A stretch of 32,000 nt of DNA from Trichodesmium erythraeum IMS101 (GCF_000014265.1 NC_008312.1:1830001-1862000), one strand, 5' to 3'; counted from the stretch's first letter, positions 6,006-32,000 are shown. The notes: generated by a model not told the origin, from the sequence alone. Program-made: numbers and translations.

Positions 6006-6058
6006 TATTTAGACAGATGTCAACTATCCTGTAACTTAACAACTGATATAATATTATT

Positions 6059-11067: not shown

Positions 11068-11221
11068 ATGGCCAGGAGTATATGGAGTAATTTTTGAGGC
11101 TTTTATAGTTAAATAAGTAGTTCCATGAATGTGGAAGAGAGCTTGTGTTGTAATGGAAAATGGGAAAATTTATTTCTCCTAAATGGTGAGAGAAGTTGTT
11201 GAATAAGTTGGAGTTAGTCTG

Positions 11222-11413: not shown

Positions 11414-11439
11414 CTATGGGAATTGCTATAACAGAACAA

Positions 11440-12289: not shown

Positions 12290-13260
12290 TTATTAATTAT
12301 ACCTACTTTTTCTAAAGCTTCAATGATGAACTACCATCCTGTTAATTAAGCTAAAAAATCCTGGTTAATATTTAGTAGAATTTCCTTAAATCTTTTCTAA
12401 AAAGGTCTGATAAATATCCCAATATTATCCACTTCAGTTTTTGTTTTATTGCTAACCATAACCTCTCTATCAGGTTAAATTCCGGACAATAACTTGGTTG
12501 AAATATGAGAATAATATTATCGGAATTATTAAGTTTAATGATTGATAATATCCAGAATTATCTACTTGAATTATATGTAAATAATTAGGGTAATTATGGG
12601 AAAATATTTCCCAGCAAAAATCGTTTAAATTACTCAACTTATAGAAAAAATTTTTCCATGAATTTGCTTCGATTTAACCCATATAAACACAAATATTTAT
12701 ACTCCCATTGTTTAGTTCCTTTACCCTTGATTCTTTTAAGATTTATTACTTTTCCTGTAATAGTTTTTAATCCCATTCTAGTTTTATAACTACACCAGAA
12801 CCTAATTTTTTTCAGGATTTTTCCTGGCATTAAAATTTTTTAATAGCTTTTTATAGGAGTTCTGACATTTTTTTACTATTCAAAATCTGTTGGATGTTGT
12901 TGAATACTCACTGGACTAGGCACTTTAAATTTGGCATTTTAGTGCTCATAAATATATCTATGTACTGTTGAGTATGGTAGATTAATATCACACACTACTT
13001 TTAACTATTTTTGTATTTCATTATCACTATTAAAACCTTCTAATTATTCTAGTTCAGCTCTAAGTATATTTTTTAATATTGGTGATATTTTTTTCAGTTT
13101 ACCAACAATTTTTTTCTTGTTCAATAAACCTTCTATACTCAATTTTGTTTAGGTAGCAAACTATTGTGATAGAGTTGTACGATGACATCCTAATAACATT
13201 AATATATATTCAATAGTATCTGCCGGAATAATATTTCTTGGAGTTCTTCAACCGATTCCA
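12290..13260 (-). mobile_element. Second IS630-like (DDE_3) transposase pseudogene
   Basis: The minus-strand translation has an HTH-like part (...INLPYSTVHRYIYEH). It is followed by MPGKILKKIRFWCSYKTR...WEYKYLCLYGLN, then IIQVDNSGYYQSLNLIIPDNIILIFQPSYCPEFNLIERLWLAIKQKLKW. The last block is the DNAxxHKS...PPYSPELNPIERxW signature, here with stops. Confidence 0.55.
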
Positions 13261-13453
13261 GAATATCTATTTTAACAAGACACACCATATTATTCACTGT
13301 TTTTATTTTTATTTAAGTAAAGTCTTGCTTTTGATAAATAGTATTATACTCTCTACAATTGTTAATTTTTTTATGATTAATTAAAATTAGTAAAAGTGAC
13401 CTTTTTTCTAATGTTTTTAGCTATTACAGTTGAACTATTGTTCAATGCAGTGG

Positions 13454-13490
13454 GGGTGTAGTGTAAGTGGAGAGGGCTTACACTACACCC
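13454..13490. repeat. Perfect 14-bp inverted repeat (hairpin) with a 9-nt loop
   Basis: gggtgtagtgtaag tggagaggg cttacactacaccc. Confidence 0.8.
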
Positions 13491-13559
13491 TATTATTTAT
13501 ATCAATAGGGATTTTATTTTAATTGAAGTATTATTCAGTCCCTAAAGGCCAATTCTTTT

Positions 13560-14145
13560 CTACATATGGCTTTCAACTAGCTTGTCACCCCGTGAGGTCA
13601 AAAATTTCTTTAACGGCATCAGACTCCGAGCTATTGAAAGAATAACTGGTATTTCTCTGTTGGACAGTGCTTAACTGGGTACGACTTGCTACAGCACAAA
13701 TTTCTGAAAAGAACATAGAAATTCCTGAAACTGCTGAAATTTGCTCACGCTTGATGAACTACAAACTTTTATAGGCTAAAAAAAACAAAGTTTGGGTCTG
13801 GAGTGTTGTAAATAATCAAATGCCAGGAATTTTTAAGCTTGTTATTTGTTATTGGCTGCGCTGTTACCTTCACAATATTGTGACAGATGATTCAAAGTTG
13901 GACTTATTTTCTTTCTATTAATGATGACTACAAGGTTTATACTTACTTAATTGAGGATTGCGATCACAAGGTCAATAAAACAGCCATGACCAGAGTAGAA
14001 GGAGAAAAATGCCGTCGTTGCTACTACTTAACTAGGTTACATCGTAAAACTTTATGCTATTCCAAATCAATTGATATGTTATGCAAGTCAATTGTTTGCT
14101 GATCTATTATTTGAAACATCGGCACGTTCCTCAATTCTCTTTATC
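13560..14145 (+). mobile_element. IS1-family transposase pseudogene fragment
   Basis: Translation reads ...RAIERITGISLLDSA-stop-LGTTCYSTNF, then DELQTFIG-stop-KKQSLGLECCK. ORF 13887-14102 reads ...DDYKVYTYLIEDCDHKVNKTAMTRVEGEKCRRCYYLTRLHRKTLCYSKSIDMLCKSI. This matches the conserved IS1 InsB C-terminal region (TRVEGxNxRLRHYLxRLxRKTLCYSKS). Confidence 0.6.
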
Positions 14146-14522
14146 ATTCGTAATTGTGCAAAGCTAAATAAAATGTAGAAAAGTTTTTGAGAAATGGTAT
14201 TAGTTTTTGATGTTTTAATTTCAGGCCCAAAACAAAAATATAACTAATGCCAACCACTATCAGATTAAAGACTTCAGGCATTTATCTTCATATCAACTTT
14301 TCTTTTTGCAAGATGTAAGTTTCCCTGTTTACCTCCCACATTTTCTTTAATCCCTAAAATATATAAATTATTAATTATTCGGTAATCTAGGTTCCTTCAA
14401 GTCACTGAGTTACAGTTGTTTTTTCTGTTTTCTATTCCCGGCAAATTGCGCCCTTACTACTCCTTACAGCAAAAAATAACTTAAACTAGGAAGAAGTAAA
14501 TATTCATAGTAATTCATTTTCT

Positions 14523-17486: not shown

Positions 17487-17492
17487 TATCAA

Positions 17493-17563
17493 CAGGACTT
17501 ACGCAATAATTTTGGATAGCTATCTCAAGCGTCTTAAACTACAACAATAATAGGTAAGTCCTG
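17493..17563. mobile_element. Miniature inverted-repeat unit carrying the same termini as the 1.1-1.4 kb elements
   Basis: caggacttacgcaat...(about 50 nt)...aggtaagtcctg starts 7 nt after the M16 protease stop codon. The 10-bp arms caggacttac and gtaagtcctg are perfect complements. Confidence 0.55.
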
Positions 17564-18018
17564 TAATAGTCTTTTGGTTTCTGGTTAATACATTTCTGCT
17601 ATTGTTACCAAAAGCTATGTCATCGTTTACCTAAAAAGGTCAAATCTAATTTTAAGTTAACCAAACAACGTTTGAATCTCCCAGGGATGAATATAATCTT
17701 GAATTACACTTGCCCCTGGGAGATCGCTAACTACCATTAACAGTTGCTATTTGTGCCAAGTTGATATTTCTCTAAATACAGCTTAGATAAATAAAGGGAT
17801 AAATTTAATTCTGGCTTCATAGCAATAAAAGTGGTAATTTATAAGTTGTTTGTAGTCAACTAATCTCCCAAATATTCAGGTTTCATAGAGATTATGGTTT
17901 AAGTACTATAAACTTTTTCCTATTCTATAAGTCAAGCTTTTTGTCCTGTACTTAGGAAAGTAAATCTTTTTAAGAAGTTCCACACGCTCTATCCCACAAA
18001 CAATATGATTTTTTTGAA

Positions 18019-19443
18019 CAGGAATTACTCGAAGACACTATATAAGTGTATATGCTTGCCAAGAGAGATAGAATTACCTGAGCTTTTGCGAACACTAATT
18101 TTTTTTAAGGGATATAGCTGCCATAGTTCCTCCCCTAGTGCTGAACAACAAAATCATCATAACTAATACAAAGATATGTTCTTTAAATTGATTTTAGCTC
18201 TATATAGATGTGGCAAATGGTAAAGATTTTTTGCTAAAATACCTGGATTATTGTATAATAATATTATTGTTAATTTGAGCCAACAATATAAATTTTAAAT
18301 ATATTAATTATAGTTAATAATTACTCAATTTTTATACAAATTATACGGTCAAAATTTTTAAAAAATTACCAAAAAATGTTAGCTGTGACATGATAAGTAA
18401 TCATTTAAAAAAATAAAAAAATGATAATCATAAATAAAAAAAATGTTGGCAAAATATAACTTATACAGAAGCTTATTTGATATTTTATTATCTTTTTTAA
18501 CAAAAAATATAGTAATAAAACTAACTTTTTTTCGTCAACAGTATAGTAGTAATGAGTATCAAGTAGTTTGTGGTGTATGAATAGCAAACTTTATATCTTT
18601 TAAGCTGAAATCGAAAATTTTGGCTCATAGGTTATCGAGTTTATGACCCAGATACTGAGAAAAAAAACCAATATATAAAAATATAAAATAAATAATTTTA
18701 TACGTAATAAATAATAACAAATTACTATTTAAGATTGTATTAATAGATAATTTTTATAGGACAAAAAGAGCAATAAAATTGATAGATAATATGGAAAAAT
18801 TTATTATTGCCTCTGCAAATAAATTGTTATCTTCGATAATACTGGTAGTATATAAAAATATAAAATTATAGGATAATTGATTTAGAATAACTTAGAAAAA
18901 ATATTATGTAAAATAATTCAAATTAAAAGAATTATTTTGAGTTCAAAAAAAAGTCAAGCTATCATAGAAAAATATTTATCCTAAATTCAGCAGAATATAT
19001 TGTCACTAATCATTTCAGTCAATCTTCAGTATATACTGTATAATCTGAGTCACAAACTAAATCTAATATCGAATAAATTATCCCCAGAATTAAGAAATTA
19101 AACGCAATTAAATTTTGTCAATTTCGTCGATTACAATATAAAAAAACCACATAGTTTTTGCTATTTTAGTCTGGAATTTATCAAAAAAATTAACAGTAAA
19201 AATAGGAAAAAATATTGATGAAGTTAAATACAAATTACTCTCAGATTATTTTCTTCAATAGTTAAAAAAATCTCACAATAAAAATCAGGGATATTTTTAT
19301 TTTATAGGTGCTTTAACCCTTGTTTTAACAATGGCAAAAATCTTAAGGGGGTTGTTAAACTTTTAGGCGATCGCGAAGGTTCAGCTCCTTATATTGCTAT
19401 CGGCAAGAATACGCCCTTATGTAGCTTCTTTGTGTAAATCCTG
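18019..19443. mobile_element. Non-autonomous TIR element, copy 2 (about 1.4 kb, more diverged)
   Basis: The left end caggaattactcgaagacactatataagtgt and right end atacgcccttatgtagcttctttgtgtaaatcctg match the copy 1 ends. Shared internal blocks include gatatagctgcca...gaacaacaaaat, aaatt(t/c)agcagaatatattg and ttttgt...aaaa(t/c)cac.t.gttt.tgctat. There is no credible ORF. Confidence 0.5.
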
Positions 19444-19483
19444 AAAGTATTAAATCCTTATTCTTTTATTAAGTTAATACTCT

Positions 19484-20875
19484 CTAATTTTTCTGAATAC
19501 CATAACAAAGCCGAGCAAGTACTATTGGATTATTTTCCATCAAATCATTTGTTAGACTTTTTAAACCCTGTAAAAAGTGTTCCAAATTATGAGTTTTTGA
19601 ACCGTCATTTTCGCAATCACGATCCTCACAGTTCCAATTCTGCCACCAATCTTGTTCTCCCAAACCATTAGCGACTACATCAACTTTGAATAAATAAATA
19701 TTTGCTTGTGGTAATTCATTAGGTTTAATTGTATTTGTATAACTTAAATCACGATTTTTGCCTACTTCCCAATTACTAAATTGCATTGAATTGAAGAGTT
19801 TTTTTGCCATTATAGCCTCTGAAGAAATGAATTCTGTTGTTGACTCATCAAAATATTTACTTTCACTAATTTTAGCTTTTATAGAATTAGCTGATGGTGG
19901 CAATGTATACTCATTTAAAATCGGCAAATTAACCTTGTATTCAATTGGTATTTCTTTTGAGAAATTGGGGATTATTTCTAACAATTCAAATTCTTTACGC
20001 TTCGGGAATTCGATCGCTACTTTACCATTATTAAGAGAGAAGGGTCGCTTCAGACCTGATATTGGTTCGCCTGGGTTTTTCAATTCACTCATGACCGATA
20101 AATCATTTATAATATTATTAGGTGAAAAGATTGTAAATTCACTGTTTTTAATTAATTCTCCTCCATCCCGCTTGAGTTTTTCAAAGTAGTAGAGAATATG
20201 TTTGTAGGGACCTAAAAATATCACATAAAAAGGCCGAAACTTTTCTATTGGTTTCCCTTCAGTGTTATAAGGAAAGTTAAAGTTATCTCTATTGCTACCA
20301 ACAACATAAACTTTTCCATTAAATTCACTTCTAATTGCTAAAATACCTGCTGCATATCCTTCTTTATTAAGATAATGTTGTCTAATTTTTTTGTTGACTG
20401 CAGTGACATCGCCTTGATTTTGATACAAATCTGTGATCAGAACTAAAAGTTCTTTTCCTTCCTTTTGTGGTGCAATAGCACCTGTTAGATTACTTGTGAC
20501 TCGATCTTCGTAGTAAAACCTCTCTTTTATTGCTTCTAGGAATTTTGAACGACTGATTTTTTGTTTCTCCGGCCCTCCAACACGATAGTATTCAACTAAG
20601 TCAGATATAGAAAATGTGCGGTCTAGCAGTTGTATTGTTTTTATATAACGACTAGCACCGTTAGTTAAATATCCCGGCATAGATTCTGAGCCATCTATAT
20701 TAAGGCTAATATTAATTGGGCCTGGTGGGGCATCCAATGAGGGAGACTGACCTTTCGTCAAAGGTACATCACAAGATAGATCGTTGTAAGTTTTTGGTCT
20801 ACAGGCTGTTGTGATACCTATTAGCATGAATAATAGAAGGGGAATTTTCCATCTTGTAATTTTTGTTGAATTCAT
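19484..20875 (-). CDS. Predicted lipoprotein with vWA-like (MIDAS) domain and an uncharacterised C-terminal half
   Basis: 463 aa. The signal peptide has a lipobox (LLLFMLIGITTAC). It has the MIDAS DxSxS motif (NIDGSESMPGY). Later NLTGAI and LLVLITDLYQN strands are typical of the vWA fold. It is the last gene of the minus-strand cluster. Confidence 0.7.
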   Translation of the reverse strand: MNSTKITRWKIPLLLFMLIGITTACRPKTYNDLSCDVPLTKGQSPSLDAPPGPINISLNIDGSESMPGYLTNGASRYIKTIQLLDRTFSISDLVEYYRVGGPEKQKISRSKFLEAIKERFYYEDRVTSNLTGAIAPQKEGKELLVLITDLYQNQGDVTAVNKKIRQHYLNKEGYAAGILAIRSEFNGKVYVVGSNRDNFNFPYNTEGKPIEKFRPFYVIFLGPYKHILYYFEKLKRDGGELIKNSEFTIFSPNNIINDLSVMSELKNPGEPISGLKRPFSLNNGKVAIEFPKRKEFELLEIIPNFSKEIPIEYKVNLPILNEYTLPPSANSIKAKISESKYFDESTTEFISSEAIMAKKLFNSMQFSNWEVGKNRDLSYTNTIKPNELPQANIYLFKVDVVANGLGEQDWWQNWNCEDRDCENDGSKTHNLEHFLQGLKSLTNDLMENNPIVLARLCYGIQKN

Positions 20876-21087
20876 AATAAGTTACTTAATTTATTTTATT
20901 AATTTTCAAAGAATATAATACAGCAGTTTTTATTTGAGTAAAGCAGATTAGGAAAGCTTTATAGAAAGTCCTTACGAGGTTTTGATTTTGACGTGAGGTC
21001 ATCAATACTGAAAAGCTCTCTAATACGTTTTCACAGAAATCATTTGACTTTCTTTAATTCTGACTTTTGACTTTTGACTTTTGACTT

Positions 21088-22776
21088 TTAACTTTCTTTT
21101 GTCTGATTTTCATTTTCAGAGTTATCCTCATCTTTTAACTTCCTAGATTCAAATTTTAATACTCCCAATTCTAAAACTTTCCACTTACCTCTATCTTCTG
21201 TAGGTTCGACTTTTGCTAGCTTCAGTAATTGAAACTTCTTCAACTCCCCTGACGAATCTCCATAACATTCAAATAAACCTTGTACATCTTCATTATTATC
21301 TGGGTTAATGTTGGCCTTCTGTCTGGGAGCTAAATAGTCACCGCTTTCCTCCGATAATATCCAGTAATTTCCGAATCTCTTTTTTTCCAAAATAACTGTA
21401 TTGCTACTATCATTGACTTTTGCAACAGTTGTAGGTTTTTTCGAGCGCCAGCTCTGACTGCTATTGTAAAGCTCTACAAAATTAGCTTCTTCAGGTGGTA
21501 GCGGTGGCAGAATTCTTGTTGGTTCTGGTGTTGGTTCTGGTGTTGGTTCTGGTGTTGGTTCTGGTGTTGGTTCTGGTGTTGTTTCTGGTGTTGGTTCTGG
21601 TGTTGGTTCTGGCGTTCGTTCTGGTGTTGGTTCTGGTGTTGGTGTTGGAGTATCTGAGGATGACATTTTTATCTGTATCCACTTAACTATACCAGGCTCG
21701 GACAACTGCCAACTTTTACCTAAATTAATTGGAGATACTTTAGCGGGTTTTAGGAGTAATAGTTTACTAGAGTCTTCCTGGAAACTGGAAGATTCAAATA
21801 ATCTAGTAAACATTTGTTTATTAAATTGATTAAGTTTGATATGTTGTTTAGGAATTAGATAGTTGTCACTTTCTTGGGATATTATCCAATAATTTCCCCG
21901 GCGGTTAGTTTCAAATACTACTTCCTGAATGGATTGATTCATACTTGCTTCTGTTTCTGAGACTGTTATTGCTATTTCTAATAATGAATCTGGACTTGCA
22001 TTATAAGTTGCTGCTAACTCAGCTTCTTGCCAACTTAGATTGAGACCTATTGGCGATGGGGGTGGTGATATTTCTTTTGGGGAGGAAGATTGTTTAATGT
22101 TATCTAGCCTTTCTGTTAAGGAACTAACTTGTTGAGAAATTATTTCTAAGAGTTCGTCTTGACTACTCTCTTGAGACAATTTTTTCCAACACTTTTGCAA
22201 ATTTGTTTCTATGGTTGATAACTGAGATTGAATACGCACTCCTACTTGCTCGTTCAAATTTTCCAATATTTCTAGCAACCCAGACTCTAGATTTTCTGCA
22301 GGATAGATTTGTTGGGATAATTGTTCTAAAACCTTCTGCAAATTTGTTTCTATGATCAACAACTTAGATTTTTGAACCTCCTGTTCTTGATTTCCCGCTA
22401 CAACTTGCTTAGTTAAATTATTCAACTTTTCTGCTATTTCTGGCGATCGCTCTTTTTGAGACTCCTGTAATTCTGTTTCCAGTTGATTGTGCTTTTCTGT
22501 GTAATCATCCAATTTTGATTTCATCTCCCTTCCCTCTTGTTGAGATTCCTGAAATTCTGTTTGCAGTTGATTGTACTTTTCTGTATAATCATTTAATTCT
22601 GATTTCATCTCCCTTCCCTCTTGTTGAGATTCCTGAAATTCTGTTTCCAGTTGATTGTACTTTTCTGTATAATCATTTAATTCTGATTTCATCTCCCTTC
22701 CCTCTTGTTGAGATTCCTGAAATTCTGCTTGCAGTTGATTGTACTTTTCTGTATAATCATTTAATTCTGATTTCAT
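21088..22776 (-). CDS. Coiled-coil repeat protein with two copies of the cluster-specific C-terminal module (downstream part of a gene interrupted by an in-frame TAA)
   Basis: 562-aa ORF. It has 28-aa tandem repeats (MKSELNDYTEKYNQLQAEFQESQQEGRE). The shared module occurs at 21679-22005 and 21151-21468, separated by a (PEPT)n linker. It lies in the same frame as ORF 22807-23136. Confidence 0.7.
   Translation of the reverse strand: MKSELNDYTEKYNQLQAEFQESQQEGREMKSELNDYTEKYNQLETEFQESQQEGREMKSELNDYTEKYNQLQTEFQESQQEGREMKSKLDDYTEKHNQLETELQESQKERSPEIAEKLNNLTKQVVAGNQEQEVQKSKLLIIETNLQKVLEQLSQQIYPAENLESGLLEILENLNEQVGVRIQSQLSTIETNLQKCWKKLSQESSQDELLEIISQQVSSLTERLDNIKQSSSPKEISPPPSPIGLNLSWQEAELAATYNASPDSLLEIAITVSETEASMNQSIQEVVFETNRRGNYWIISQESDNYLIPKQHIKLNQFNKQMFTRLFESSSFQEDSSKLLLLKPAKVSPINLGKSWQLSEPGIVKWIQIKMSSSDTPTPTPEPTPERTPEPTPEPTPETTPEPTPEPTPEPTPEPTPEPTRILPPLPPEEANFVELYNSSQSWRSKKPTTVAKVNDSSNTVILEKKRFGNYWILSEESGDYLAPRQKANINPDNNEDVQGLFECYGDSSGELKKFQLLKLAKVEPTEDRGKWKVLELGVLKFESRKLKDEDNSENENQTKES
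21514..21657. repeat. 12-bp microsatellite-like repeat encoding a (T/E)P-rich PEPT linker
   Basis: ggttctggtgtt is reiterated about 10 times. On the minus strand it encodes TPTPTPEPTPERTPEPTPEPTPETTPEPTPEPTPEPTPEPTPEPT. Confidence 0.9.
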
Positions 22777-22938
22777 CTCCCTTCCCTCTTGTTGAGATTG
22801 CTGAAATTATGTTTGCAGTTGATTGTACTTTTCTGTGTAATCATCTAATTCTGATTTCAATCGCGATCGCTCTTGTTGAGATTGCTGAAGTTCTGCTTGT
22901 AACTCTTCATATTTGGCCCTCAATTGTTTTAGCTGAGA
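22435..22938. repeat. 84-bp tandem repeat array (4 near-identical core copies plus diverged flanking copies) inside a coding sequence
   Basis: tttcatctcccttccctcttgttgagattcctgaaattctgtt(t/c)(g/c)cagttgattgtacttttctgtataatcatttaattctga starts at 22519, 22603, 22687 and 22771. Diverged copies start at 22435 and 22855. Confidence 0.9.
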
Positions 22939-23136
22939 TTCCTGTTTCTTTAGAACGTGCAACTTTTGTATCGCCCACTTTTCTACTTTTTGAAGAGCGT
23001 CGGACGAACTAAACCCCGAACCTTCAAGAACTTCATCGCCACTATTGGAATAAAGCCTTAAATACCAACCGCATTTGAGACAAAAATTCACCTGTTGCTG
23101 TTGATATTCTGTATTGCAAACCGGACAATTTGGCAT
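22807..23136 (-). CDS. Zinc-ribbon plus coiled-coil N-terminal part of the interrupted repeat protein
   Basis: 109 aa. MPNCPVCNTEY...NFCLKCGWYL is a CPxC...CxxCG zinc ribbon. The ORF ends in repeat sequence ...LKSELDDYTEKYNQLQT-TAA. The TAA at 22807-22809 replaces the GAA found in sister repeats. Confidence 0.7.
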   Translation of the reverse strand: MPNCPVCNTEYQQQQVNFCLKCGWYLRLYSNSGDEVLEGSGFSSSDALQKVEKWAIQKLHVLKKQESQLKQLRAKYEELQAELQQSQQERSRLKSELDDYTEKYNQLQT

Positions 23137-23301
23137 TAGTTATCTTTCCATTTATAAATTTACTTCAATCTACAAACCACTGTTCCTCTTTACTCAGATA
23201 TAATACATCTTCTCATTTTCCCTCTCGTTTTGTGGTAGTAGCTGGTTCTATAGATATGTGAAACTTTACTTGCGGGTCTATCGTTGTAGTCGATGCAGAT
23301 A

Positions 23302-24318
23302 TTATGGACTATTTCGTAGCCATCCTCCAAACAGACTAACAAGCTCTTTGATTGGCCTCAACTCTCCTTCCAGCAGTCTTTGCAACTCCTCTTTGAGTTT
23401 TAATATTTGACTATTAATTTTGTTAATTTCTGCTCCTACCGCTTTTAAATAAGTAGTATTGTTTTTCTGCTTATGAGTTATTTCTTGCAACTGATAGATG
23501 TTATTAATTTCACTTTCTTCTAGTTTTGATAATTGAGACTGCAACTGCACCAACTTCTCACTTAACTCAGACTTCAATTGTGCCAACCTCTGAAAATAAT
23601 CGGCCTCCAAATTAGAACATCGTTGCTCCTGGAGCGCCCCTGCCTGTTCCAACCGTTCTAAACGCTCCGTCAAATTACTCCGCCAGCGATCGCCTTCCTC
23701 CAACTTGGCCAAAGTCTTCTGTAAGCGATCGTAAGCCAACTCTGCCACCTGAGAAGCAAAGCGATCGCGCTCGTCCCTGGCCAACCTCAACTCAGATTCC
23801 AGTTTTTCTCGCTCCTCCTTTACTCCTTCCAGTTCCGACTGTAGCCGAGATAATTGAGAATTACCACCAAAATCTAACACCCCCCGCTCCTCCAACCGCC
23901 ACTGATCTCCCCCTGGCGTCAGAGAAACCTTAGCCAGTTTAACCAGGATAAACTCCCGCGCATCCTCTGAAAGAGAACCATTGAACTTGAACAAAGATTT
24001 AACAGTATCCTTGTTAAAAGAATTAATTCGGAAATTTGCTTTAGGTAATAACCAGTAACATCCCTTCTCCGTAACCATTACCCAATAATTCCCATTTCGC
24101 TCTTCACCGAGCAAAACTTCTGAATTAGAATATCTCCATCCCCTAAAGTCAATTTTTGAAACCTTAATAGCCTTTCTTGAGAGAACCCTCGGCGCATAAT
24201 TATAAGCTTCGATCAATTCATCTTCAGACAAACTTATCCAACCCCGTGGGAGAGTTTCCAGGGTTTTCGTCACCCGCACCGAGTTAGTTAATTCTGAGGA
24301 ATAATTATCTGGTTTCAT
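23302..24318 (-). CDS. Permuted paralog: shared module at the N-terminus followed by a coiled coil
   Basis: 338 aa. The shared module lies at 23869-24204 (YNYAPRVLSRKAIKVS...NGNYWVMV...LFKF...ILVKLAKVS...WRLEERGVLDF). The C-terminal coiled coil ends QKNNTTYLKAVGAEINKINSQILKLKEELQ...LRPIKELVSLFGGWLRNSP. That tail is homologous to the middle of the 27687-28649 protein. Confidence 0.75.
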   Translation of the reverse strand: MKPDNYSSELTNSVRVTKTLETLPRGWISLSEDELIEAYNYAPRVLSRKAIKVSKIDFRGWRYSNSEVLLGEERNGNYWVMVTEKGCYWLLPKANFRINSFNKDTVKSLFKFNGSLSEDAREFILVKLAKVSLTPGGDQWRLEERGVLDFGGNSQLSRLQSELEGVKEEREKLESELRLARDERDRFASQVAELAYDRLQKTLAKLEEGDRWRSNLTERLERLEQAGALQEQRCSNLEADYFQRLAQLKSELSEKLVQLQSQLSKLEESEINNIYQLQEITHKQKNNTTYLKAVGAEINKINSQILKLKEELQRLLEGELRPIKELVSLFGGWLRNSP

Positions 24319-24402
24319 TGTTTTTTTATGATATATAGCCTTTTTTACTGGTCAAATATTATCGAGTTTATTTAACGAAATTTCAATATATTTTACTACC
24401 TA

Positions 24403-25686
24403 TTAATCAAATTGTAGTATACCACGTTCGACAAGCTGCCAAGTTTCACCTTTTGAAATAGCAGATACTTTGGCGGGTTTTATTAGTTGAAACCCGGAGT
24501 ATTCAGGTCGGTATCCCTGACATTCAAATAAATTTGCAACTGTCTTACTGTTATATTCATTAATTTTGATGTTATGCCTAGGAACCATGTAATCAATATC
24601 AGCCTCATTTAGTATCCAATAGTTTCCTCTGCGAACTTTCTGAATAATTACTGCTTGAGTGCTACTTATACGAGGTTGAACCATGCTTCGGTCTGCTTCT
24701 GAGACCTCTATAGCATTTTCTGATAAAGAACGGGTATCTTCTTTATATATTAACATAAACTCAAGATTGGGCAAACCTCCAGCTATATTATCTGGAGTCT
24801 TTAGTTGCTGATTTTGTTGGGGCTGGTTTATTTGATTTGGTAGGTTCCTTAATTCAATATCCAATCTTTTACGAATTTCTTGTTGTAATTGCCCATGAAT
24901 TTCCTCTTTCACTGCTTCAAAAATCAGCTTTTTATTATCGGCATTGTTGTCTGAAGTCTTTAGTTGCTGATTTTGTTGGAGCTGGTTTATTTGATTTTGT
25001 AGGTTCCTTAATTTAATATCCCATCTTTGATCAATTTCTTGTTGTAATTGCCTATAAATCTCCCCTATTTTATCATTTACTACTTGAACAATCAACTTTT
25101 TATTATCGACATTATTACCTGGAGTCTTGACTTGCTGATTTTGTTGTAAATAGTATATTTGACTTTTTATTTTTTTCGTTTCAGCATCCCATAATTTAGA
25201 CATTTTTTCTAATTTATAATAAGCATCTTCTACTTTATAGTCTACTTCATAAACAAGTTCTTGAGTATCTAAATTACTGGGTTTATTAACAGCATTATTC
25301 TGTTTTATCTGCCATATTAATAGCGAAATATAAAACAACAATAAGACTGTGAATAGTACTAATAGAATGAAAGAAAATATCACTGTTCTTCGTATATTCT
25401 TAAACTGATTTAATTGATTAAAAATTGCTTGTTTTTCATAGTTTAAATTCTTAATTTCTTCCTCATTGTTATTAGCTATAGCGGCTAATTCATTGTTTGT
25501 TTTTTGAACATCATCAAAGCTGTTCTTTAAATTTTCCTGATCTGGATTTAAAGGAATTGATGTTGTCGAAGTACTAGGTGGTATTTCTGGCTCTAGTTGT
25601 ACACAAGCCACGAAAGAACCAGATATTAATACCAAAGACAGCAATAAACTGTATGTGCTTTTCCAACTGTGTATGCTTTTCCACAT
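24403..25686 (-). CDS. Lipoprotein-signal / TM / coiled-coil protein with shared C-terminal module
   Basis: 427 aa. It has the lipobox signal MWKSIHSWKSTYSLLLSLVLISGSFVAC. An internal TM helix reads TVIFSFILLVLFTVLLLFYISLLIW. There are Q/N-rich repeats of about 55 aa. The shared module lies at about 24403-24744 (RRGNYWIL...LFECQGY...LIKPAKVS...WQLVERGILQF). Confidence 0.8.
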   Translation of the reverse strand: MWKSIHSWKSTYSLLLSLVLISGSFVACVQLEPEIPPSTSTTSIPLNPDQENLKNSFDDVQKTNNELAAIANNNEEEIKNLNYEKQAIFNQLNQFKNIRRTVIFSFILLVLFTVLLLFYISLLIWQIKQNNAVNKPSNLDTQELVYEVDYKVEDAYYKLEKMSKLWDAETKKIKSQIYYLQQNQQVKTPGNNVDNKKLIVQVVNDKIGEIYRQLQQEIDQRWDIKLRNLQNQINQLQQNQQLKTSDNNADNKKLIFEAVKEEIHGQLQQEIRKRLDIELRNLPNQINQPQQNQQLKTPDNIAGGLPNLEFMLIYKEDTRSLSENAIEVSEADRSMVQPRISSTQAVIIQKVRRGNYWILNEADIDYMVPRHNIKINEYNSKTVANLFECQGYRPEYSGFQLIKPAKVSAISKGETWQLVERGILQFD

Positions 25687-25866
25687 AAAAACTCACTTTT
25701 TTCTTCAAAATACATCCCCATAATAAGGTTTGTAAACCCTTATAGCACTGTTCCAAAATTAGTATTTTGGGAGAAGTCTAATAAACGAACTAATAAACTA
25801 TCGTATCCTTTTCACTGCGCAATTATCTAACTGAGAATTGACTTCCCCAAAAGGTTCCATTGCCCA

Positions 25867-27660
25867 TTAATAAAATTGCAGTACTCCAAGTTCTACAAGC
25901 TGCCAAGTTTCACCTCTGGAAATAGCAGACACTCTCGCTGGTTTTATCAGTTGAAACCCGGAGTATCCAGACCTATATCCCTGACATTCAAATAAATTTT
26001 TAACTGTTTCCAAGCTATGCTCGTTAATCTTGATGTTATTTTTAGGAACCATGTAATCAACCCCACCCTCGTTTAATATACAATAGTTTCCCCTGCGAAC
26101 TTTCTGAAGAATTGCTCCTTGACCGCCACCGAGACGACGTTGGTCAATGCTTTGTTCTGTTTCCGAGACCTCTATAGCATTTTTTAACAAAGAACGGGCG
26201 TCGTGCTGATACATTGATATCAATTGCAGATCTGACGACCCAAAATATTGATGGGTAGGTATTTGTGGGTTCATTTGAGGTACTGGTGTTACTTGGCTAG
26301 TTAAATGATTGGTTGTTATTCGAGATTCTCTGTGAACTCCAGCTACATTGTCTGAAGTCCTTAGTTTCTGATTTTGTTGGAGCTGGTTTATTTGATTTTG
26401 TAGGTTCCTTGATTCAATATCCCATCTTTGATCAATTTCTTGTTGTAATTGCCTATAAATCTCCCCTATTTTCTCATTTACTACTTGAACAATCAACTTT
26501 CTATTATCGACATTATTACCTGGAGTCTTGACTTGCTGATTTTGTTGGAGATAGTATATTTGACTTTGTATTTTTTTCGCTTCATTCTCCCAGATTTTAG
26601 ACATTTTTTCTAATTTATCATAAGCATCTTCTACTTTATCGTCTACTTCATAAACAAGTTCTTGAGTATCTAAATCACCAGTTTGATTAACACCATTATT
26701 CGGTTGTTTGGTATTTGTATAAGCTTTGTTATATCTTTTCAAAAGCAGCTTTATTCTCCTCCAATCTTGCCAAATATAAACACATAAACCACTTAAAAAT
26801 ACAGCTATTACCAGCACTATTATGACAACAAATGTCTCTAATTTTAGTCTACTTTGAAACTGATTTAATTGATTATAAATTTCTTGTTTTTCAGAGTTTA
26901 AATTCTTAATTTCTTCCTCATTCTTCTTAGCTATAGCGGCTAATTCATTATTTCTTGCTTCCAAATCAGCTATTTTTCTAGCCAATTCTTTGTCATCATC
27001 TTTATCGAGGGTAACAGATGAAGGTAAACCAGTAACTTGACCAAGATCGATAATTTTAGCTTTTAGCTGTTTGCTGTTTTCTGTCAATGACTCATTTATT
27101 TTACTTTGCGTATCTGGACCTAAGCGTCCAAAATAAGATACTTCCGGATTTGTAATAATCTGCAAATTTAGTTGGACTTCACCAATTTTGTCTTTGCCTA
27201 ATCCACCTTTTAATTTTTCAGTTATTTCTTTAATGTTACTAATATTTTGATTTATGCTATTAAAATTTTGCTCTAAATTTTCTTGATTTCTTATTTGCGA
27301 AATTTGATTTTTATACGTATTAACTTTTTCTTCCAGTTGTATTAGTTTTTCATTAACCTTAGAACTATTTACTGATTCCCTATTTTTGGAACCCTCTCTT
27401 ACTGCAGCAATGTCCTTAATAAAATCGTCTAATAATGTTTGAAATTCATCGTTTGTTTTTTGAATATCATCAAAGCTGTTCTTTAAATTTTCCTGATCTA
27501 AATTTCCCTGATCTGGATTTAAAGGACTTGATGTTATCGAAGGACTAGTAAGTATTGTGTTTGGATCTGTTTGTACACAAGCCACTAAAGAACCAGACAT
27601 TAATACCAAAGACAGCAATAAACTGTATGTGCTTTTCCAACTATATATGCTTTTCCACAT
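25867..27660 (-). CDS. Lipoprotein-signal / long extracytoplasmic coiled coil / TM / coiled-coil protein with shared C-terminal module
   Basis: 597 aa. Its N-terminus is nearly identical to the previous gene (MWKSIYSWKSTYSLLLSLVLMSGSLVAC). About 240 aa of coiled coil precede the TM helix FVVIIVLVIAVFLSGLCVYIW. The same Q/N-rich repeats follow. The shared module lies at 25867-26211. Confidence 0.8.
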   Translation of the reverse strand: MWKSIYSWKSTYSLLLSLVLMSGSLVACVQTDPNTILTSPSITSSPLNPDQGNLDQENLKNSFDDIQKTNDEFQTLLDDFIKDIAAVREGSKNRESVNSSKVNEKLIQLEEKVNTYKNQISQIRNQENLEQNFNSINQNISNIKEITEKLKGGLGKDKIGEVQLNLQIITNPEVSYFGRLGPDTQSKINESLTENSKQLKAKIIDLGQVTGLPSSVTLDKDDDKELARKIADLEARNNELAAIAKKNEEEIKNLNSEKQEIYNQLNQFQSRLKLETFVVIIVLVIAVFLSGLCVYIWQDWRRIKLLLKRYNKAYTNTKQPNNGVNQTGDLDTQELVYEVDDKVEDAYDKLEKMSKIWENEAKKIQSQIYYLQQNQQVKTPGNNVDNRKLIVQVVNEKIGEIYRQLQQEIDQRWDIESRNLQNQINQLQQNQKLRTSDNVAGVHRESRITTNHLTSQVTPVPQMNPQIPTHQYFGSSDLQLISMYQHDARSLLKNAIEVSETEQSIDQRRLGGGQGAILQKVRRGNYCILNEGGVDYMVPKNNIKINEHSLETVKNLFECQGYRSGYSGFQLIKPARVSAISRGETWQLVELGVLQFY

Positions 27661-27686
27661 GATAACTAACCTCTTAGTTCAATAAA

Positions 27687-28649
27687 TTAACCAATAAATT
27701 CCAGTTTCCCTGGCTCGGACAGTTGCCACTTTTCTTCTCCAATAGAAGAAACTTTAGCAGGCTTTAATAGTTCAAATTTACCCTTAGATCCTTCACTATT
27801 GACACCTTGACACTCAAACAAATTTTTCAGAGTATCGATGCTATATTCATTAATCTTTATTGTATCGCTAGGAACTAAATACTGCGAACTACCTTGTTTT
27901 AATATCCAATAGTTGCCCCGGCGCTTTTTTTCCAGAACTGATTTACCAATACCTAAACGACTGTTATCAATACTCTCTGTTGCTGCTGAAACAGTTATCG
28001 CATTTTGTGATAAAACAGTACGTTTTTCTTCGTCCTTGTAGTCTTTTAACAACTGTTCTTCTTCACTCAGAGGTAATTGATATTTTCCTTCCTCCTCTAC
28101 TTCTCTGGTGGTATTTAGTTCTGTAGATGTTTGCAACTTTACTTGCGGGTCTATCGTTGTGCTCAATGGCAGATATTCTGGATTATTTTTGAACCATTCT
28201 CCAAACAAACTAATCAACTTTTTGATAGGCCTCAACTCATCTTGGAGTTTTGAGATCTCATTATTAATTTGGTTAATTTCTTCTCTTCCTGCCTCTAAAG
28301 AAGCAGTATTGTTGTTCTGCTTCTGAATTAGTTCTTGCAACTCCTCTTGGAGTTTTGAGTTCTCATTATTAATTTGGTTAATTTCTTCTCTTTCTGCCTC
28401 TAAAGAAGCAGTATTGTTGTTCTGCTTCTGAGTTAGTTCTTGCAATTGAGATTTGAACGATTCTAACATTTGAACCAATTGCTCTTTTATGTTATGCTCC
28501 CAAGTTGCAGCATGTGCTGATGTTTCTCTAATATTTTCAAACCCTTGAGGTTTATCGCCAGTTAAACTATCATGCAGAGCATAACCACAATTCCGACAAA
28601 AATTATCGCCCTTGTTTACTTCAGCCTGGCACTGTGGACAGTTACTCAT
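27687..28649 (-). CDS. Zinc-ribbon / coiled-coil protein with shared C-terminal module
   Basis: 320 aa. The zinc ribbon is MSNCPQCQAEV...NFCRNCGYAL. A 2 x 35-aa repeat (105-bp period, 28241-28450) is present. The shared module lies at 27687-28040. An AAGGAG Shine-Dalgarno sequence sits upstream. The next gene starts only 26 nt downstream. Confidence 0.8.
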   Translation of the reverse strand: MSNCPQCQAEVNKGDNFCRNCGYALHDSLTGDKPQGFENIRETSAHAATWEHNIKEQLVQMLESFKSQLQELTQKQNNNTASLEAEREEINQINNENSKLQEELQELIQKQNNNTASLEAGREEINQINNEISKLQDELRPIKKLISLFGEWFKNNPEYLPLSTTIDPQVKLQTSTELNTTREVEEEGKYQLPLSEEEQLLKDYKDEEKRTVLSQNAITVSAATESIDNSRLGIGKSVLEKKRRGNYWILKQGSSQYLVPSDTIKINEYSIDTLKNLFECQGVNSEGSKGKFELLKPAKVSSIGEEKWQLSEPGKLEFIG

Positions 28650-28961
28650 ATTTCCTACTAAGCTCCTTAACTTCTCTAAAATGGTATATTGTGACGAATT
28701 ATTAAATCATTTTTACAGCTAGTCATTAAAGCTATCTAACACACCCTACTAGACCAACAAATCTCAAATTGTGCATGACTACGGATTAATAAATCCCTTT
28801 TTTAGTATGAATTTAAGCCCTCTAAAGCACCCTAAAAGTTTTGCTACAATAGCCCAAATTAAGCAAATTAATATGATTGCAGATTCAGACATATCTAGTA
28901 GTATCCCTAGCAGCCTAATTTCTGGCTGCCAGTATTGAGATTCTAGTCAGAATTAGACCAC

Positions 28962-30110
28962 CTACTTACCTGCCCACTCCTTAGCTAAAACATGTAATAA
29001 AGCCTTCAGCCCCATAATAAAAGGCGGTTCCACACGAATATCATCCGTTTCTCCCTTCATATTCAACAAAACATTTGTCAACTCCCTCTGGGTATTTCGC
29101 CAAAGAGTCTGGTTATAAGTAGATTCTGGTTCTGCCCCTGGCTCGTTCCCCAGTTCATAATCCTGTAGCGGGAGAATTTCCTCAATCTCCAACTCCTTCA
29201 AAGATACATGAAAATCATCTAGAAACGTTCTTAACTGTACTAAATCAGGAATTTTTAACTCCCGAATATTTCCCTCAAACTCCAAGCGTTCTCTCCAGTT
29301 GATGGGATTACCATTAATTTCACAATCCTCTCCTGCAATCAACGGATCTTTAGTTTTCCTCCCTAATCCTGTCAACTTAGTACGACCCAAGACCAAACCA
29401 CAAGCTACCTCGTCTTTTGGTCTCTGACTCAATCTCGTTTTTTCCAATATGCGATCATCAAATCCAGAGCCTTTAGTCAACATCTGACTCAGCAGCTCGT
29501 TAACTTCCGAAGAAGGAAGAAATTTACCCCTTTCAGCTAACCAGTTTAACAATCGAGAACCATTTCCGCCAATATAAACAGGAGTAATTTCGCGACTCTT
29601 GTATTTTTCCTCTTGTTCAAGAACTCCCAAGATTGTCCCCACATAGTAATACAATCCCCCCATACCAATTGCCATCAGCCGGAGCAAACCTTGAAACTTC
29701 GGATCGTCCTCTGCAAAATCCCTTTTATTCTTCAGCCACTTTTCACTTTCCAGGCGTAGAAATACATCCAGCTTGGCACTAAACTTGTCTTCAGTTAATC
29801 GATCCCAGTCTTTCAAATTCTGCTCGAATAGCTGGGAGAAAAAATTTGGATTCAATTCTAAAAAATTCGACAACAAATGACGACCAGCCAATAAAACCGA
29901 ACATTGATGAATGAGCTCGTTGTTGTACCAAACCGAAATATCTGAAGTTCCACCTCCCATATCAATACAAGTTGTTCGGATTAAATCATGTCTTTCCTGG
30001 TCTGCAAAATATTGAGCGATCGCCAAACTCTCAGTTTTGAATAAACCTACATCATCTGACTGCGGGCAAATGTGTGTAATTCCAGTTTGAGCTTGAAGTT
30101 CCTCCGTCAA
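28962..30110 (-). CDS. C-terminal two-thirds of the Hsp70/actin-fold (ASKHA) ATPase core; continuation of the upstream ORF after an in-frame TAG
   Basis: 382 aa from a TTG codon. TCIDMGGGTSDISVW is the phosphate-2 motif. VYIGGNGSRLLNWL is the adenosine motif. ESLAIAQYF occupies the position of EPTAAALAY. It lacks its own phosphate-1 motif, which lies in the upstream ORF. Confidence 0.7.
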   Translation of the reverse strand: MTEELQAQTGITHICPQSDDVGLFKTESLAIAQYFADQERHDLIRTTCIDMGGGTSDISVWYNNELIHQCSVLLAGRHLLSNFLELNPNFFSQLFEQNLKDWDRLTEDKFSAKLDVFLRLESEKWLKNKRDFAEDDPKFQGLLRLMAIGMGGLYYYVGTILGVLEQEEKYKSREITPVYIGGNGSRLLNWLAERGKFLPSSEVNELLSQMLTKGSGFDDRILEKTRLSQRPKDEVACGLVLGRTKLTGLGRKTKDPLIAGEDCEINGNPINWRERLEFEGNIRELKIPDLVQLRTFLDDFHVSLKELEIEEILPLQDYELGNEPGAEPESTYNQTLWRNTQRELTNVLLNMKGETDDIRVEPPFIMGLKALLHVLAKEWAGK

Positions 30111-30116
30111 ATCTTG

Positions 30117-32000
30117 CTAAGTCTTCGCATACCTATTTTTATCACGACGAGAAAAAGCCGTAGGATAGGAAATACACCACTGAATTTGTTTGACTCCTTC
30201 CTTGGCGGCAACCGCGCTTACATGTAAGGCTAAATGTTTCAAAAACAATTTGTTAGGATGGTAATTTTTCCACTTCAAGTCTGTTTCTATCCATCCCCTG
30301 AGCGGTTCAAACCTGTTGCGATCAGGAATATATATCCTGCCATCAATAATTGGGAAATCTAGGTTTTCCGTCTTATTTGGCTTCCCCCTAGTTGTCAGCA
30401 CGCTAGACAAGGGTAACGGTTTGTCAGTCGGGATAAAGCTTTCCGGGACAAAGTATTCAAACAATACAGGCCTGCGGGTTTCTGTCAAAACCTCCGTCAC
30501 CTTCAAGTGCAAATTTTCCAACTTCAATGGCTCCGATAAACCGTTACTATTGACATAGATATTGGTGAAAGAAGTGCCGAAATCTACCCCCACTTTCCAT
30601 CGTTCTCCCAGCCTAATTTTCTCTGGACTTTTCAGCAGAATCAAGCCAATGGGACTTCCAGAACTATCCTGACACTCAATGAAACTAGGAAATTCTTCTA
30701 GGTGAGTTATTTGATAAGCACCCCTACCATCTATAAAAGGATGACGATCTTTCGCTTCCGGTAGAAACACTTGAAAAGTATCCTCTCCAAATTCAGCATC
30801 GTAATAAAAAGCATAATAAGAGCGCCATCCATCCGCCAGGAAATTAGGCCATACTTCCAATACCGGAACTTCCGGCAAAGCATTTTTATCTTCTATGGGA
30901 TAATCTTTGGAAATCCGATAATTCTGAGGTTGCCGAGGGTCATCTTTCATCCCTGACAAAGGCAAGTCCAGGGTTACCCGCACTTGAGGTCCATCACTAC
31001 TATTTATTTGAGCAAACTCGACCTTAGCGATTAAATCTTCCGGAGTAAAATAGTCGAGAAGTATAGGATTGATAGGTATCAGGGGCGTAATACTTTTACC
31101 CTGAAAAATTAACTTCGTCCCCGGAGGTAGGAAAGCTCCCGGTAGAGCATCTTCTTGGTCTACAAACCGAAATTCTTCCATAAATAAATCCTTGGACTCC
31201 TTCCACTCAACATCTGGCCAAGTAATTTTCTTTTCACGCAAGTCTTGTATTTGTAGGGAAGCCAGAGTTTGCTCCTCGTGTATCCAAATATCTTGAGGCG
31301 GTTTTCCCCAAGCTGAAGAAATGTTCTGGTCAATAATCAATAGAGGTTTTACCTGCCCCTTATTCTTACTAGGAACTAAGCGAACCCAAGAAGACTGAGC
31401 CTCAGCTTTCACCGGACGATTAATACCTTCCAACACCCCTCGATTAATGGCCACACCAAAAAACTGAGGATTATTGCTCAAACTCAGGCCCTGGTCCATT
31501 GGGCGAGGCCCCAAACTATTTTGGAAGTCATCTAGCAATCCGCCGATCGCATCAATTGCCTCTGCTTGGCCCTCATAGGAAGTATCGCCTAAAATTCCCC
31601 GCAAATTTTCTAACCAGCGCCAGAGGAGAGCCTTCTCGCTGACATTGAGATGTGGTTGAGGAGACTCCAACTGACCCGTCAGTTTGTTCCACCAAGGCAA
31701 GCCATTCCATTTTCCTTCTTCAGAGGGGGCCACTATAGTACTAGGAGTAGTAAGACCCACAAGTATACCATACCACAGAAATATATAAATGTCTTGCCAG
31801 GGATTTTTGGTTTCTAAGGCATACAGGGCATTAACTGGATCCGGTAGCAGTTCGTATAGAGAACGGGCGAAAGGATTTTGGTCTTTTTCTAGCCCCAAGT
31901 CTAAAAATTGAGCAGTTATGGGAAAGCGGCGTACTTCTGCCAAAGCAACCGCCGCCAACATCCCCTGCCACTGTTGGACCATTTTATCTCGGATGGGATA
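30117..32000 (-). CDS. N-terminal extension plus the phosphate-1 part of the same Hsp70/actin-fold ATPase; 5-prime end probably outside the window
   Basis: The track ORF is 621 aa. RWKVGVDFGTSFTNIYV is the phosphate-1 motif (about 30570-30590). QWCISYPTAFS is the Hsp70 VITVPAYF equivalent. More than 460 preceding residues have no motif I recognise. The frame stays open (YPIRDK) from the listed Met at 31982 to position 32000. Confidence 0.7.
   Translation of the reverse strand, partial: YPIRDKMVQQWQGMLAAVALAEVRRFPITAQFLDLGLEKDQNPFARSLYELLPDPVNALYALETKNPWQDIYIFLWYGILVGLTTPSTIVAPSEEGKWNGLPWWNKLTGQLESPQPHLNVSEKALLWRWLENLRGILGDTSYEGQAEAIDAIGGLLDDFQNSLGPRPMDQGLSLSNNPQFFGVAINRGVLEGINRPVKAEAQSSWVRLVPSKNKGQVKPLLIIDQNISSAWGKPPQDIWIHEEQTLASLQIQDLREKKITWPDVEWKESKDLFMEEFRFVDQEDALPGAFLPPGTKLIFQGKSITPLIPINPILLDYFTPEDLIAKVEFAQINSSDGPQVRVTLDLPLSGMKDDPRQPQNYRISKDYPIEDKNALPEVPVLEVWPNFLADGWRSYYAFYYDAEFGEDTFQVFLPEAKDRHPFIDGRGAYQITHLEEFPSFIECQDSSGSPIGLILLKSPEKIRLGERWKVGVDFGTSFTNIYVNSNGLSEPLKLENLHLKVTEVLTETRRPVLFEYFVPESFIPTDKPLPLSSVLTTRGKPNKTENLDFPIIDGRIYIPDRNRFEPLRGWIETDLKWKNYHPNKLFLKHLALHVSAVAAKEGVKQIQWCISYPTAFSRRDKNRYAKT

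Follow-up and report, generated by a model that had tools for sequence, protein, structure and literature searches.

We analysed 32,000 nucleotides (nt) of the Trichodesmium erythraeum IMS101 genome (hereafter the window), focusing on an uncharacterised gene cluster that comprises Tery_1180 to Tery_1186 and continues with genes beyond the window end. Every substantial open reading frame (ORF) from position 32000 down to 19484 lies on the minus strand, and the cluster genes are separated by gaps of 312, 26, 180, 84, 165 and 212 nt. The interval 19484-32000 encodes an ATPase of ~1091 amino acids (aa), which is split by a TAG codon and runs off the window, five coiled-coil proteins that share one module (hereafter adaptors), and a 463-aa lipoprotein (Table 1). 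Five of the six proteins looked up returned exact matches (Tery_1180, Tery_1183, Tery_1184, Tery_1185 and Tery_1186). An earlier annotation, made by a model from the sequence alone (the initial annotation), had described such a minus-strand cluster with gaps of 26-312 nt, and all the elements that it listed are present where it had placed them. Comparison across genomes identifies the cluster as the 3' seven-ninths of a conserved, cyanobacteria-specific nine-gene operon. Our literature searches found no study of this operon, experimental or computational, and no mention of its locus tags.

Table 1. Features of the cluster, in window positions
Feature	Position	Strand	Description
ATPase, N-terminal part	30117..32000	-	Residues ~80-706 of ~1091 aa, from translation; runs off window end
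In-frame TAG in ATPase	30114-30116	-	TGG>TAG; Trp invariant in 60 homologues
ATPase, C-terminal part	28962..30113	-	DMGGGTSD, IGGNGSR, then C-terminal helical region; Foldseek-matched model
Tery_1186, zinc (Zn) class	27687..28649	-	Zn ribbon, coiled coil (105-bp x2 repeat), C-terminal module 27690-28073
Tery_1185, membrane class	25867..27660	-	Signal/lipobox LVAC, ~245-aa exported coiled coil (predicted), transmembrane (TM) helix, cytoplasmic coiled coil, C-terminal module 25870-26238
Tery_1184, membrane class	24403..25686	-	Tery_1185 paralogue, shorter exported segment, TM helix, 159-bp x2.2 repeat, C-terminal module 24406-24774
Tery_1183	23302..24318	-	N-terminal module 23866-24231, then coiled coil
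Zn-ribbon double-module gene	21088..23136	-	28-aa (84-bp x5.4) coiled-coil repeats, module a 21676-22032, PTPEPT linker, module b 21151-21495; interrupted by TAA
In-frame TAA in Zn-ribbon double-module gene	22807-22809	-	GAA>TAA, first full unit of 84-bp repeat
Tery_1180, 463-aa lipoprotein	19484..20875	-	Lipobox and MIDAS-like DGSES...TD, putative vWA

The operon emerged from a survey in which one genome per species was scanned for relatives of the ATPase; 264 genomes matched, and the best 80 loci were mapped. The named organisms among these 80 loci are all cyanobacteria, unicellular as well as filamentous, and represent every major order. Carriers include the bloom-formers Microcystis, Raphidiopsis and Dolichospermum and the ocean nitrogen-fixers Trichodesmium and Crocosphaera. 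Nearly all of the 79 additional loci follow a canonical order, with the lipoprotein gene on the minus strand followed on the plus strand by genes for a TM protein, a tubulin-like protein, the ATPase and one to seven module proteins. The first neighbourhoods, from Calothrix and Raphidiopsis/Cylindrospermopsis, consist of a divergent gene for a ~467-aa protein, genes for a ~155-aa protein and a ~500-aa Tubulin_2 protein, the ATPase gene, and then four to five genes without a Pfam match. Every gene downstream of the ATPase carries the module in these loci, and the divergent ~467-aa protein is 33-35% identical to the window lipoprotein over its full length. A lipoprotein gene at the 3' end of the operon, as in the window, occurs only in Trichodesmium and Okeania; it usually lies divergently at the 5' end. 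When all flanking ORFs of 83 loci were clustered, five conserved families were obtained, with no sixth family and no P-loop GTPase. The initial annotation had proposed a coherent system and named a neighbourhood survey as its own check; the ATPase, module and lipoprotein genes proved to be syntenic in essentially all 79 further loci. That the genes are unrelated neighbours, alike by chance or through low-complexity coiled coil, could be argued from the database matches of the adaptors, which are mostly coiled-coil noise. This is refuted by the module, which is globular and conserved (E values to 1e-59 per copy), and by the synteny of five families over ~80 loci from all major cyanobacterial orders, and we consider it extremely improbable.

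Two invariant partners lie outside the window. The tubulin-like GTPase (490-506 aa) clears the Pfam Tubulin_2 gathering score of 27 bits (37.4 and 35.5), keeps its IGGxG and GSIFGGTGASG loops in 71 loci, and is encoded directly upstream of the split ATPase in IMS101-type assemblies. The gene for a ~160-aa protein with four TM segments overlaps or abuts the tubulin-like gene, and we therefore infer that the GTPase is tethered to the membrane. Given this conserved order, the window holds seven of nine genes and misses these two core genes. The seven-gene system of the initial annotation is incomplete, as it lacked the two upstream partners.

Scans of all window proteins against Pfam, NCBIfam, PADLOC and PHROGs returned only coiled-coil noise, a Zn ribbon and sub-threshold FtsA/MreB matches. 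In PADLOC-DB 2.0, the noise came from JetC, LmuB and ZorA models, and the ATPase and the lipoprotein had no match. No protein of the cluster mapped to a known function in these four databases or among PDB sequences, in line with the earlier statement that no characterised system of this composition is known.

The ATPase is read in a single frame (28962-32000) of 1013 codons with one in-frame TAG. Its N-terminal part carries phosphate-1 (VGVDFGTS) and ISYPTAFS, and its C-terminal part phosphate-2 (DMGGGTSD) and adenosine (IGGNGSR); the four motifs and a length above 1000 aa on read-through are as initially described. Across 60 homologues, the phosphate-1, phosphate-2 and adenosine motifs show little or no variation. 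Since homologues measure 1075-1100 aa, the window lacks ~80 N-terminal residues of the protein. The N-terminal part in the window is 95% identical to the intact orthologue P0001. The family comprises 316 clusters, every one annotated 'hypothetical', with 52-66% identity across orders, and the ratio of nonsynonymous to synonymous substitution rates (dN/dS) is 0.15-0.16 among intact lineages.

An AlphaFold2 (AF2) model of the ATPase (predicted local distance difference test, pLDDT, 85; predicted TM-score, pTM, 0.73) gave 187 Foldseek matches in the PDB at E<=1e-3, with MreB/Mbl and the nucleotide-binding domain (NBD) of DnaK on top at probability 1.0, which bears out the Hsp70/actin fold proposed from the motifs. 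The matched region, residues ~545-1000, aligned equally with Hsp70 NBD, MreB, MamK and PilM (E 1e-7 to 1e-5), and an unassigned alpha+beta region of ~540 aa precedes phosphate-1. The protein has no HSP70 match in Pfam or NCBIfam, where only sub-threshold FtsA/MreB matches at the phosphate-2 motif appeared, and its family alignment used as a profile against PDB sequences gave nothing significant. It shares the acetate and sugar kinase/Hsp70/actin (ASKHA) fold and the three motifs with MreB, MamK, PilM, FtsA and the DnaK NBD, with Foldseek TM-scores to the target of 0.45-0.55. In contrast, identity to these proteins is 10-15%, the ATPase is about three times larger, and it falls into no Pfam or NCBIfam family above threshold. 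Judged from the model, it belongs to the ASKHA fold without being a true Hsp70 or MreB. The fold search showed no preference for Hsp70 over MreB and therefore does not distinguish a chaperone-like clamp from a polymer.

Additional copies of the ATPase occur in several loci. Seven loci carry an extra ~730-aa paralogue after the module genes that lacks the first ~340 residues. More broadly, shorter paralogues of ~600-800 aa without the first ~270-460 residues stand after the module genes or alone (Okeania); their sites in the surveyed loci are L023 16759-18960, L027 15846-18035, L044 19752-21563, L051 10246-12744, L065 15329-17710, L068 15913-18153, L014 9252-11723 and L046 15359-18376. In Calothrix anomala (L012 3218-7162), a second full-length ATPase gene with an N-terminal extension of ~237 aa and no Pfam match for it occupies the usual place of the lipoprotein gene, upstream of the TM and tubulin-like genes.

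The shared module is ~120 aa long. The initial annotation had counted five genes with one module each; the five genes stand, and a profile hidden Markov model built from the window copies detects six copies (E 1e-49 to 1e-59 each), two of them in the gene at 21088-23136. An AF2 model (pLDDT 86, pTM 0.81) shows a pair of helices and then a largely beta region. The module has no match in Pfam, NCBIfam, PADLOC, the PDB or viral structures (BFVD), and the best Foldseek E values were 0.5 in the PDB and 0.28 in BFVD, all with low TM-scores. Its description as novel thus holds for both sequence (Pfam, NCBIfam) and fold (PDB, BFVD) searches. An exhaustive profile search recovered 911 representative clusters, whose proteins contain between one and four copies each. 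Among 241 copies from 69 loci, median pairwise identity is 32% and 16 positions are at least 80% conserved, with a consensus that includes GnYW, yLvP, lF, kPA.V and W.L...G...F. Most module proteins (171 of 203) carry it at the extreme C-terminus. A further copy suspected within the N-terminal region of the ATPase was rejected (hhalign probability 0.1%). Four proteins (P0214, P0225, P0255 and P0264) combine two N-terminal modules with a seven-bladed WD40 propeller, an architecture absent from the window.

We propose that the module would serve as a common docking or oligomerisation domain that plugs the adaptors into a cytoplasmic NTPase core. In Lyngbya confervoides (L046), one protein consists of the module, coiled coil and an ATPase lacking the first ~325 residues, a predicted fusion that physically links module to ATPase, and in all 69 sampled loci with module genes these genes lie beside the ATPase gene. 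Both observations argue against the module being a homotypic adaptor, in the manner of Death-like or effector-associated domains, that clusters the coiled-coil proteins with one another instead of docking them onto the ATPase. A homotypic role would suit the presence of several module proteins per operon and of one to four copies per protein, and the double module with WD40 resembles the adaptor-plus-repeat proteins known from conflict systems (Kaur, Burroughs, Iyer & Aravind 2020, eLife 9:e52696; PMC7159879). On balance, we regard a homotypic module as rather unlikely.

The adaptors combine the module with different front ends. CPxC...CxxCG zinc ribbons open the genes starting at 28649 and 23136 (the former passes the Pfam Zn_Ribbon_1 cut-off of 25 with 27.5 bits), and a signal/lipobox (SLVAC in Tery_1185, SFVAC in Tery_1184) with an internal TM helix is found in the genes starting at 27660 and 25686; the initial annotation had described each front end for two genes. 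Parts of the coiled coils consist of tandem repeats, with units of 84 bp (x5.4), 105 bp (x2), 159 bp (x2.2) and 12 bp (x10.6). We classified 203 module ORFs from 69 loci: 47 start with a Zn ribbon, ~75 have TM segments, often as a signal/lipobox plus internal helix, and 81 have neither. After the ATPase gene, the Zn class comes first in 39 of 69 loci and the TM class second in 38 of 56, and the class with N-terminal or double modules comes third. The window fits this order exactly, with Zn, TM, TM and N-module genes followed by the Zn-ribbon double-module gene. The conserved class order indicates that the paralogues fall into three ancient classes that duplicated within lineages rather than having expanded freely.

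The adaptors nevertheless diverge fast. Between IMS101 and Trichodesmium MAG_R02, the ATPase is 95% and the lipoprotein 90% identical, whereas the adaptors reach 68-83%; against MAG_R03, the values are 87% for the ATPase and 52-55% for the adaptors. Sequence comparison thus indicates that the adaptors evolve much faster than the ATPase. The paralogue diversification noted earlier takes the form of rapid divergence and lineage-specific duplication, set within three architectural classes that keep a fixed order across the phylum. The MAG_R02 orthologue of Tery_1183 has a second, C-terminal module. In the last adaptor gene, the 12-bp x10.6 repeat at 21517-21643 encodes a Pro/Thr-rich (PTPE)n linker between the two modules, and it gives rise to long spurious ORFs, both in a second frame of its own strand and on the complementary strand.

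The lipoprotein is predicted to be lipidated: the lipobox reads [LFV][LIV][TVS][AGS]C, and its Cys is kept in 53 of 55 orthologues. A motif resembling the metal ion-dependent adhesion site (MIDAS) is also conserved, with D61-G-[ST]-x-S65 in 53/53 orthologues and T148-D149 after a hydrophobic strand in 55/55; the middle position is Ser128 (80%), not Thr. UniRef labels one orthologue 'VWFA domain-containing'. None of 27 orthologues has a Pfam match at E<=1, and the family alignment used as a profile against the PDB gave nothing significant. Compared by hhalign with a von Willebrand factor A (vWA) profile made from five typed-in I/A-domain sequences that were checked against the PDB, the family aligned over 12 columns only, those of the DxSxS motif (probability 1.4%). 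A vWA identity, as initially assigned, is therefore plausible at the level of motifs; the lipobox Cys and the MIDAS-like motif stand, and the profile tests do not carry the fold beyond those 12 columns.

The predicted topologies are consistent with the lipoprotein and the lipidated N-terminal coiled coils lying outside, TM helices crossing the membrane, and the modules, Zn ribbons and ATPase lying inside. The initial reading of a coherent system that is probably associated with the envelope is thereby supported. The earlier idea of a surface-variation locus is unsupported, given that a cytoplasmic location is predicted for the modules and for most of the coiled coil. We propose that the operon encodes a membrane-anchored, NTP-driven assembly system of the thematic class of predicted tubulin/vWA/HSP70 conflict systems, a reading to which we give about an even chance. 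Synteny shows its core components to be the ~160-aa four-TM protein, translationally coupled to the ~500-aa tubulin/FtsZ-superfamily GTPase, together with the ~1090-aa ASKHA ATPase, the exported MIDAS-like lipoprotein and a coiled-coil array whose proteins share the ~120-aa alpha/beta module at one end. Three adaptor classes would plug into this core: Zn-ribbon-headed proteins, lipid-anchored membrane-spanning proteins and double-module cross-linkers. The membrane-spanning adaptors may extend the link through the inner membrane in the direction of the lipoprotein, and GTP and ATP turnover by the two NTPases may control assembly or remodelling of the scaffold. The putative biological role, regulated assembly with a conflict theme, is the weakest step of this proposal.

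Cytoskeletons rest on two pillars, NTPases of the tubulin/FtsZ type and NTPases of the actin/Hsp70 type. A single operon that joins both types with a membrane protein, a MIDAS-like lipoprotein and graded adaptors is unusual, and it adds a ~120-aa domain family of at least 911 sequence clusters that is confidently modelled and has no PDB match. The operon could also reveal the workings of the predicted tubulin/vWA/HSP70 'regulated assembly' systems. Two published groups of systems, both known from comparative genomics alone, come closest to it.

Makarova & Koonin (2010, Biol Direct 5:33; PMC2875224) described systems of FtsZl1 (= Tubulin_2) with vWA proteins and proposed a role in membrane remodelling. 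Like these, the present operon pairs a divergent Tubulin_2-type GTPase of the FtsZ/tubulin superfamily with a linked protein bearing an intact DxSxS MIDAS motif, there often secreted or membrane-bound; in both cases lineage-specific membrane and low-complexity proteins are linked, and both are known from comparative genomics alone. In contrast, FtsZl1 measures 900-1130 aa with coiled coil and a helical C-domain, whereas the GTPase here has ~500 aa, and the published description contains neither an actin-fold ATPase nor a shared module. Membership was rejected because protein length and architecture differ and because the FtsZl1 locus of IMS101 is Tery_1705-1709. Nor is any OmpA or GTPase partner family, as described for FtsZl1, conserved in the flanks of the 83 loci.

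The second group, DO-GTPase/GAP1-N2 systems, combines tubulin and vWA or HSP70/GrpE/DnaJ themes, and a regulated cytoskeleton-like assembly has been inferred for them (Kaur et al. 2020; PMC7159879). Shared features are constant NTPases (tubulin homologues, HSP70-fold proteins) with vWA proteins, some extracytoplasmic, as well as Zn ribbons, TM components and variable linked genes; the caspase, trypsin with VMAP-M1, Trypco1 and iSTAND domains found around fused ATPase copies (see below) also belong to that network. However, those systems are firmicute and actinobacterial and this operon is cyanobacterial; its ATPase lacks a Pfam HSP70 match and a substrate-binding domain and has a 540-aa unassigned N-terminal region; and the shared module and three adaptor classes do not appear in that description. 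Membership was rejected, since none of the surveyed loci has the DO-GTPase and GAP1 genes that define these systems and no Pfam GAP1 match was obtained. Membership in the MoxR-vWA-VMAP ternary systems was rejected as well: the canonical operon has no AAA+ gene, and the only VMAP-M1 is that of a rare fused ATPase copy at another locus. By sequence comparison, the operon resembles the FtsZl1-vWA and DO-GTPase systems in theme and is a member of neither.

A connection to conflict loci comes from three ATPase homologues with an N-terminal caspase or trypsin plus VMAP-M1. The two that could be placed (at L083 5639-9733, L084 3466-6789 and L085 2984-6307) both lie outside the canonical operon, one beside Trypco1, ParAB and DUF3854 genes and the other beside caspase-NACHT-WD40 and caspase-iSTAND-AAA genes. 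Their nucleotide-binding motifs are damaged (GGRTSD/GGDGLW in one; DFGTY/GGTTSD in the other), and those of the third are intact. Such protease-fused, motif-degraded copies are a hint that parts of this machine are borrowed by the immune-like systems of multicellular bacteria. The initial annotation had raised the possibility of a conflict/defence locus; the protease-fused ATPase copies in conflict islands and the module-WD40 fusions support it indirectly and do not establish it.

Several points favour a conflict-type role: the patchy occurrence of the operon, fast-evolving and repeat-rich parts beside constant NTPases, a partner with a MIDAS-like motif, which the ternary systems also have, the sharing of caspase, trypsin, VMAP and WD40 domains, and tolerated nonsense mutations. 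A number of observations weigh against it. The ATPase tree largely follows taxonomy, with two old clades; the canonical operon matches nothing in PADLOC or PHROGs and shows no domain recognisable as an effector or toxin; and the window flanks are housekeeping genes. All three points would suit a lineage-specific cell-biological machine at least as well as a defence system. In addition, profile tests did not confirm the vWA fold of the lipoprotein, two genes of this genome contain nonsense codons, and the degraded ATPase copies in conflict islands may just as well be decoys derived from a cellular subsystem.

The alternative would be a lineage-specific cytoskeletal or envelope machine of housekeeping type, in which a tubulin-like and actin-fold filament or chaperone pair organises or remodels the envelope or internal membranes, the adaptors are fixed structural subunits, and no conflict role exists. 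Its confinement to cyanobacteria with an ATPase tree largely congruent with taxonomy, the strong purifying selection on the ATPase (omega 0.15), the invariant order of the three adaptor classes, the lack of effector domains and defence-database matches, and the housekeeping flanks in the window all agree with such a machine. The motif-degraded, protease-fused copies would fit the idea of conflict systems borrowing inactive cellular parts (PMC7159879), and membrane remodelling has been proposed for the related FtsZl1-vWA systems (PMC2875224). Three features run counter to it: the distribution is patchy (264 species genomes, with the usual model strains absent among the named matches), nonsense mutations are tolerated across T. 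erythraeum assemblies, and even close relatives differ in the copy number, repeat lengths and sequences of their adaptors. We consider a purely housekeeping machine possible and a regulated assembly of conflict type slightly likelier. A further reading, which we regard as fairly unlikely, is a hitherto undescribed, cyanobacteria-specific trans-envelope machine in which the membrane-tethered GTPase and actin-fold ATPase, members of both cytoskeletal NTPase superfamilies in one operon, would assemble coiled-coil stalks via the new docking fold, linking the cytoplasm to the exported MIDAS lipoprotein, with its parts repeatedly copied by conflict systems as decoys or baits.

The nonsense codons bear on the state of the system in T. 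erythraeum. The ATPase is split into 706 + 382 aa in two independent T. erythraeum assemblies as well, and both nonsense codons are also present in GCA_018457135.1 (T. erythraeum GBRTRLIN201) and in a metagenome scaffold of independent origin. They are thus genuine and not sequencing errors, and all three T. erythraeum assemblies that we examined share them. Two codons past the ATPase TAG there is a TTG restart codon. Against the intact MAG_R02 orthologue, the IMS101 ATPase has a dN/dS of 0.39 (51 nonsynonymous : 35 synonymous changes). The derived amino-acid changes number 17 on the IMS101 branch, one of them at a conserved column, and 24 on the MAG_R02 branch; with the changes so balanced and one conserved site hit, the stop would be recent or tolerated, either through a TTG-restarted split protein or through read-through.

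T. erythraeum is rich in pseudogenes and non-coding DNA. This background would suit a decaying relic, with the ATPase (by its TAG) and one adaptor (by its TAA) reduced to pseudogenes and the other genes no longer acting together as a system; so would the nature of both nonsense codons, which are single-base changes at conserved positions common to three assemblies, and the dN/dS of 0.39 compared with 0.15 among intact lineages. However, both ATPase halves are intact ORFs but for the single stop, derived changes are no commoner on the IMS101 branch than on that of MAG_R02, the TTG restart makes a two-piece ATPase conceivable, and all other cluster genes are intact and identical across strains. 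We therefore judge a relic to be fairly unlikely. Sequence data are compatible with either a recently disabled system or one made as split proteins, and in both cases the nonsense codons offer a natural loss-of-function or split-protein case.

The 84-bp (28-aa) repeat at window positions 22450-22899 differs in copy number among T. erythraeum assemblies (downstream ORF of 562 versus 536 aa; L086 and L087), and the 9 kb around it are identical between assemblies. Between IMS101 and the metagenome scaffold L087, all 15 coding differences fall within a 230-nt patch at 26411-26640 in Tery_1185, a pattern that fits gene conversion from the part shared with its tandem paralogue Tery_1184.

Outside the cluster, the window carries housekeeping genes with extended AT-rich non-coding DNA between them; their products are an M23 peptidase, DapF, a tetrapyrrole methylase, a MobA-like transferase and a PreP-type M16 peptidase. 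No Rfam or tRNA match was obtained anywhere in the window in Rfam and tRNA scans. A scan of the window found promoter-like sites at chance level and no minus-strand terminator-like sites, a result with no bearing on transcription either way. Coding density is very low across positions 1-14500, where only four ORFs reach 80 aa (M23 peptidase, DapF, tetrapyrrole methylase and MobA-like protein), and a 2-kb stretch of ~22-29% GC (17487-19483) lies between the PreP-like peptidase and lipoprotein genes.

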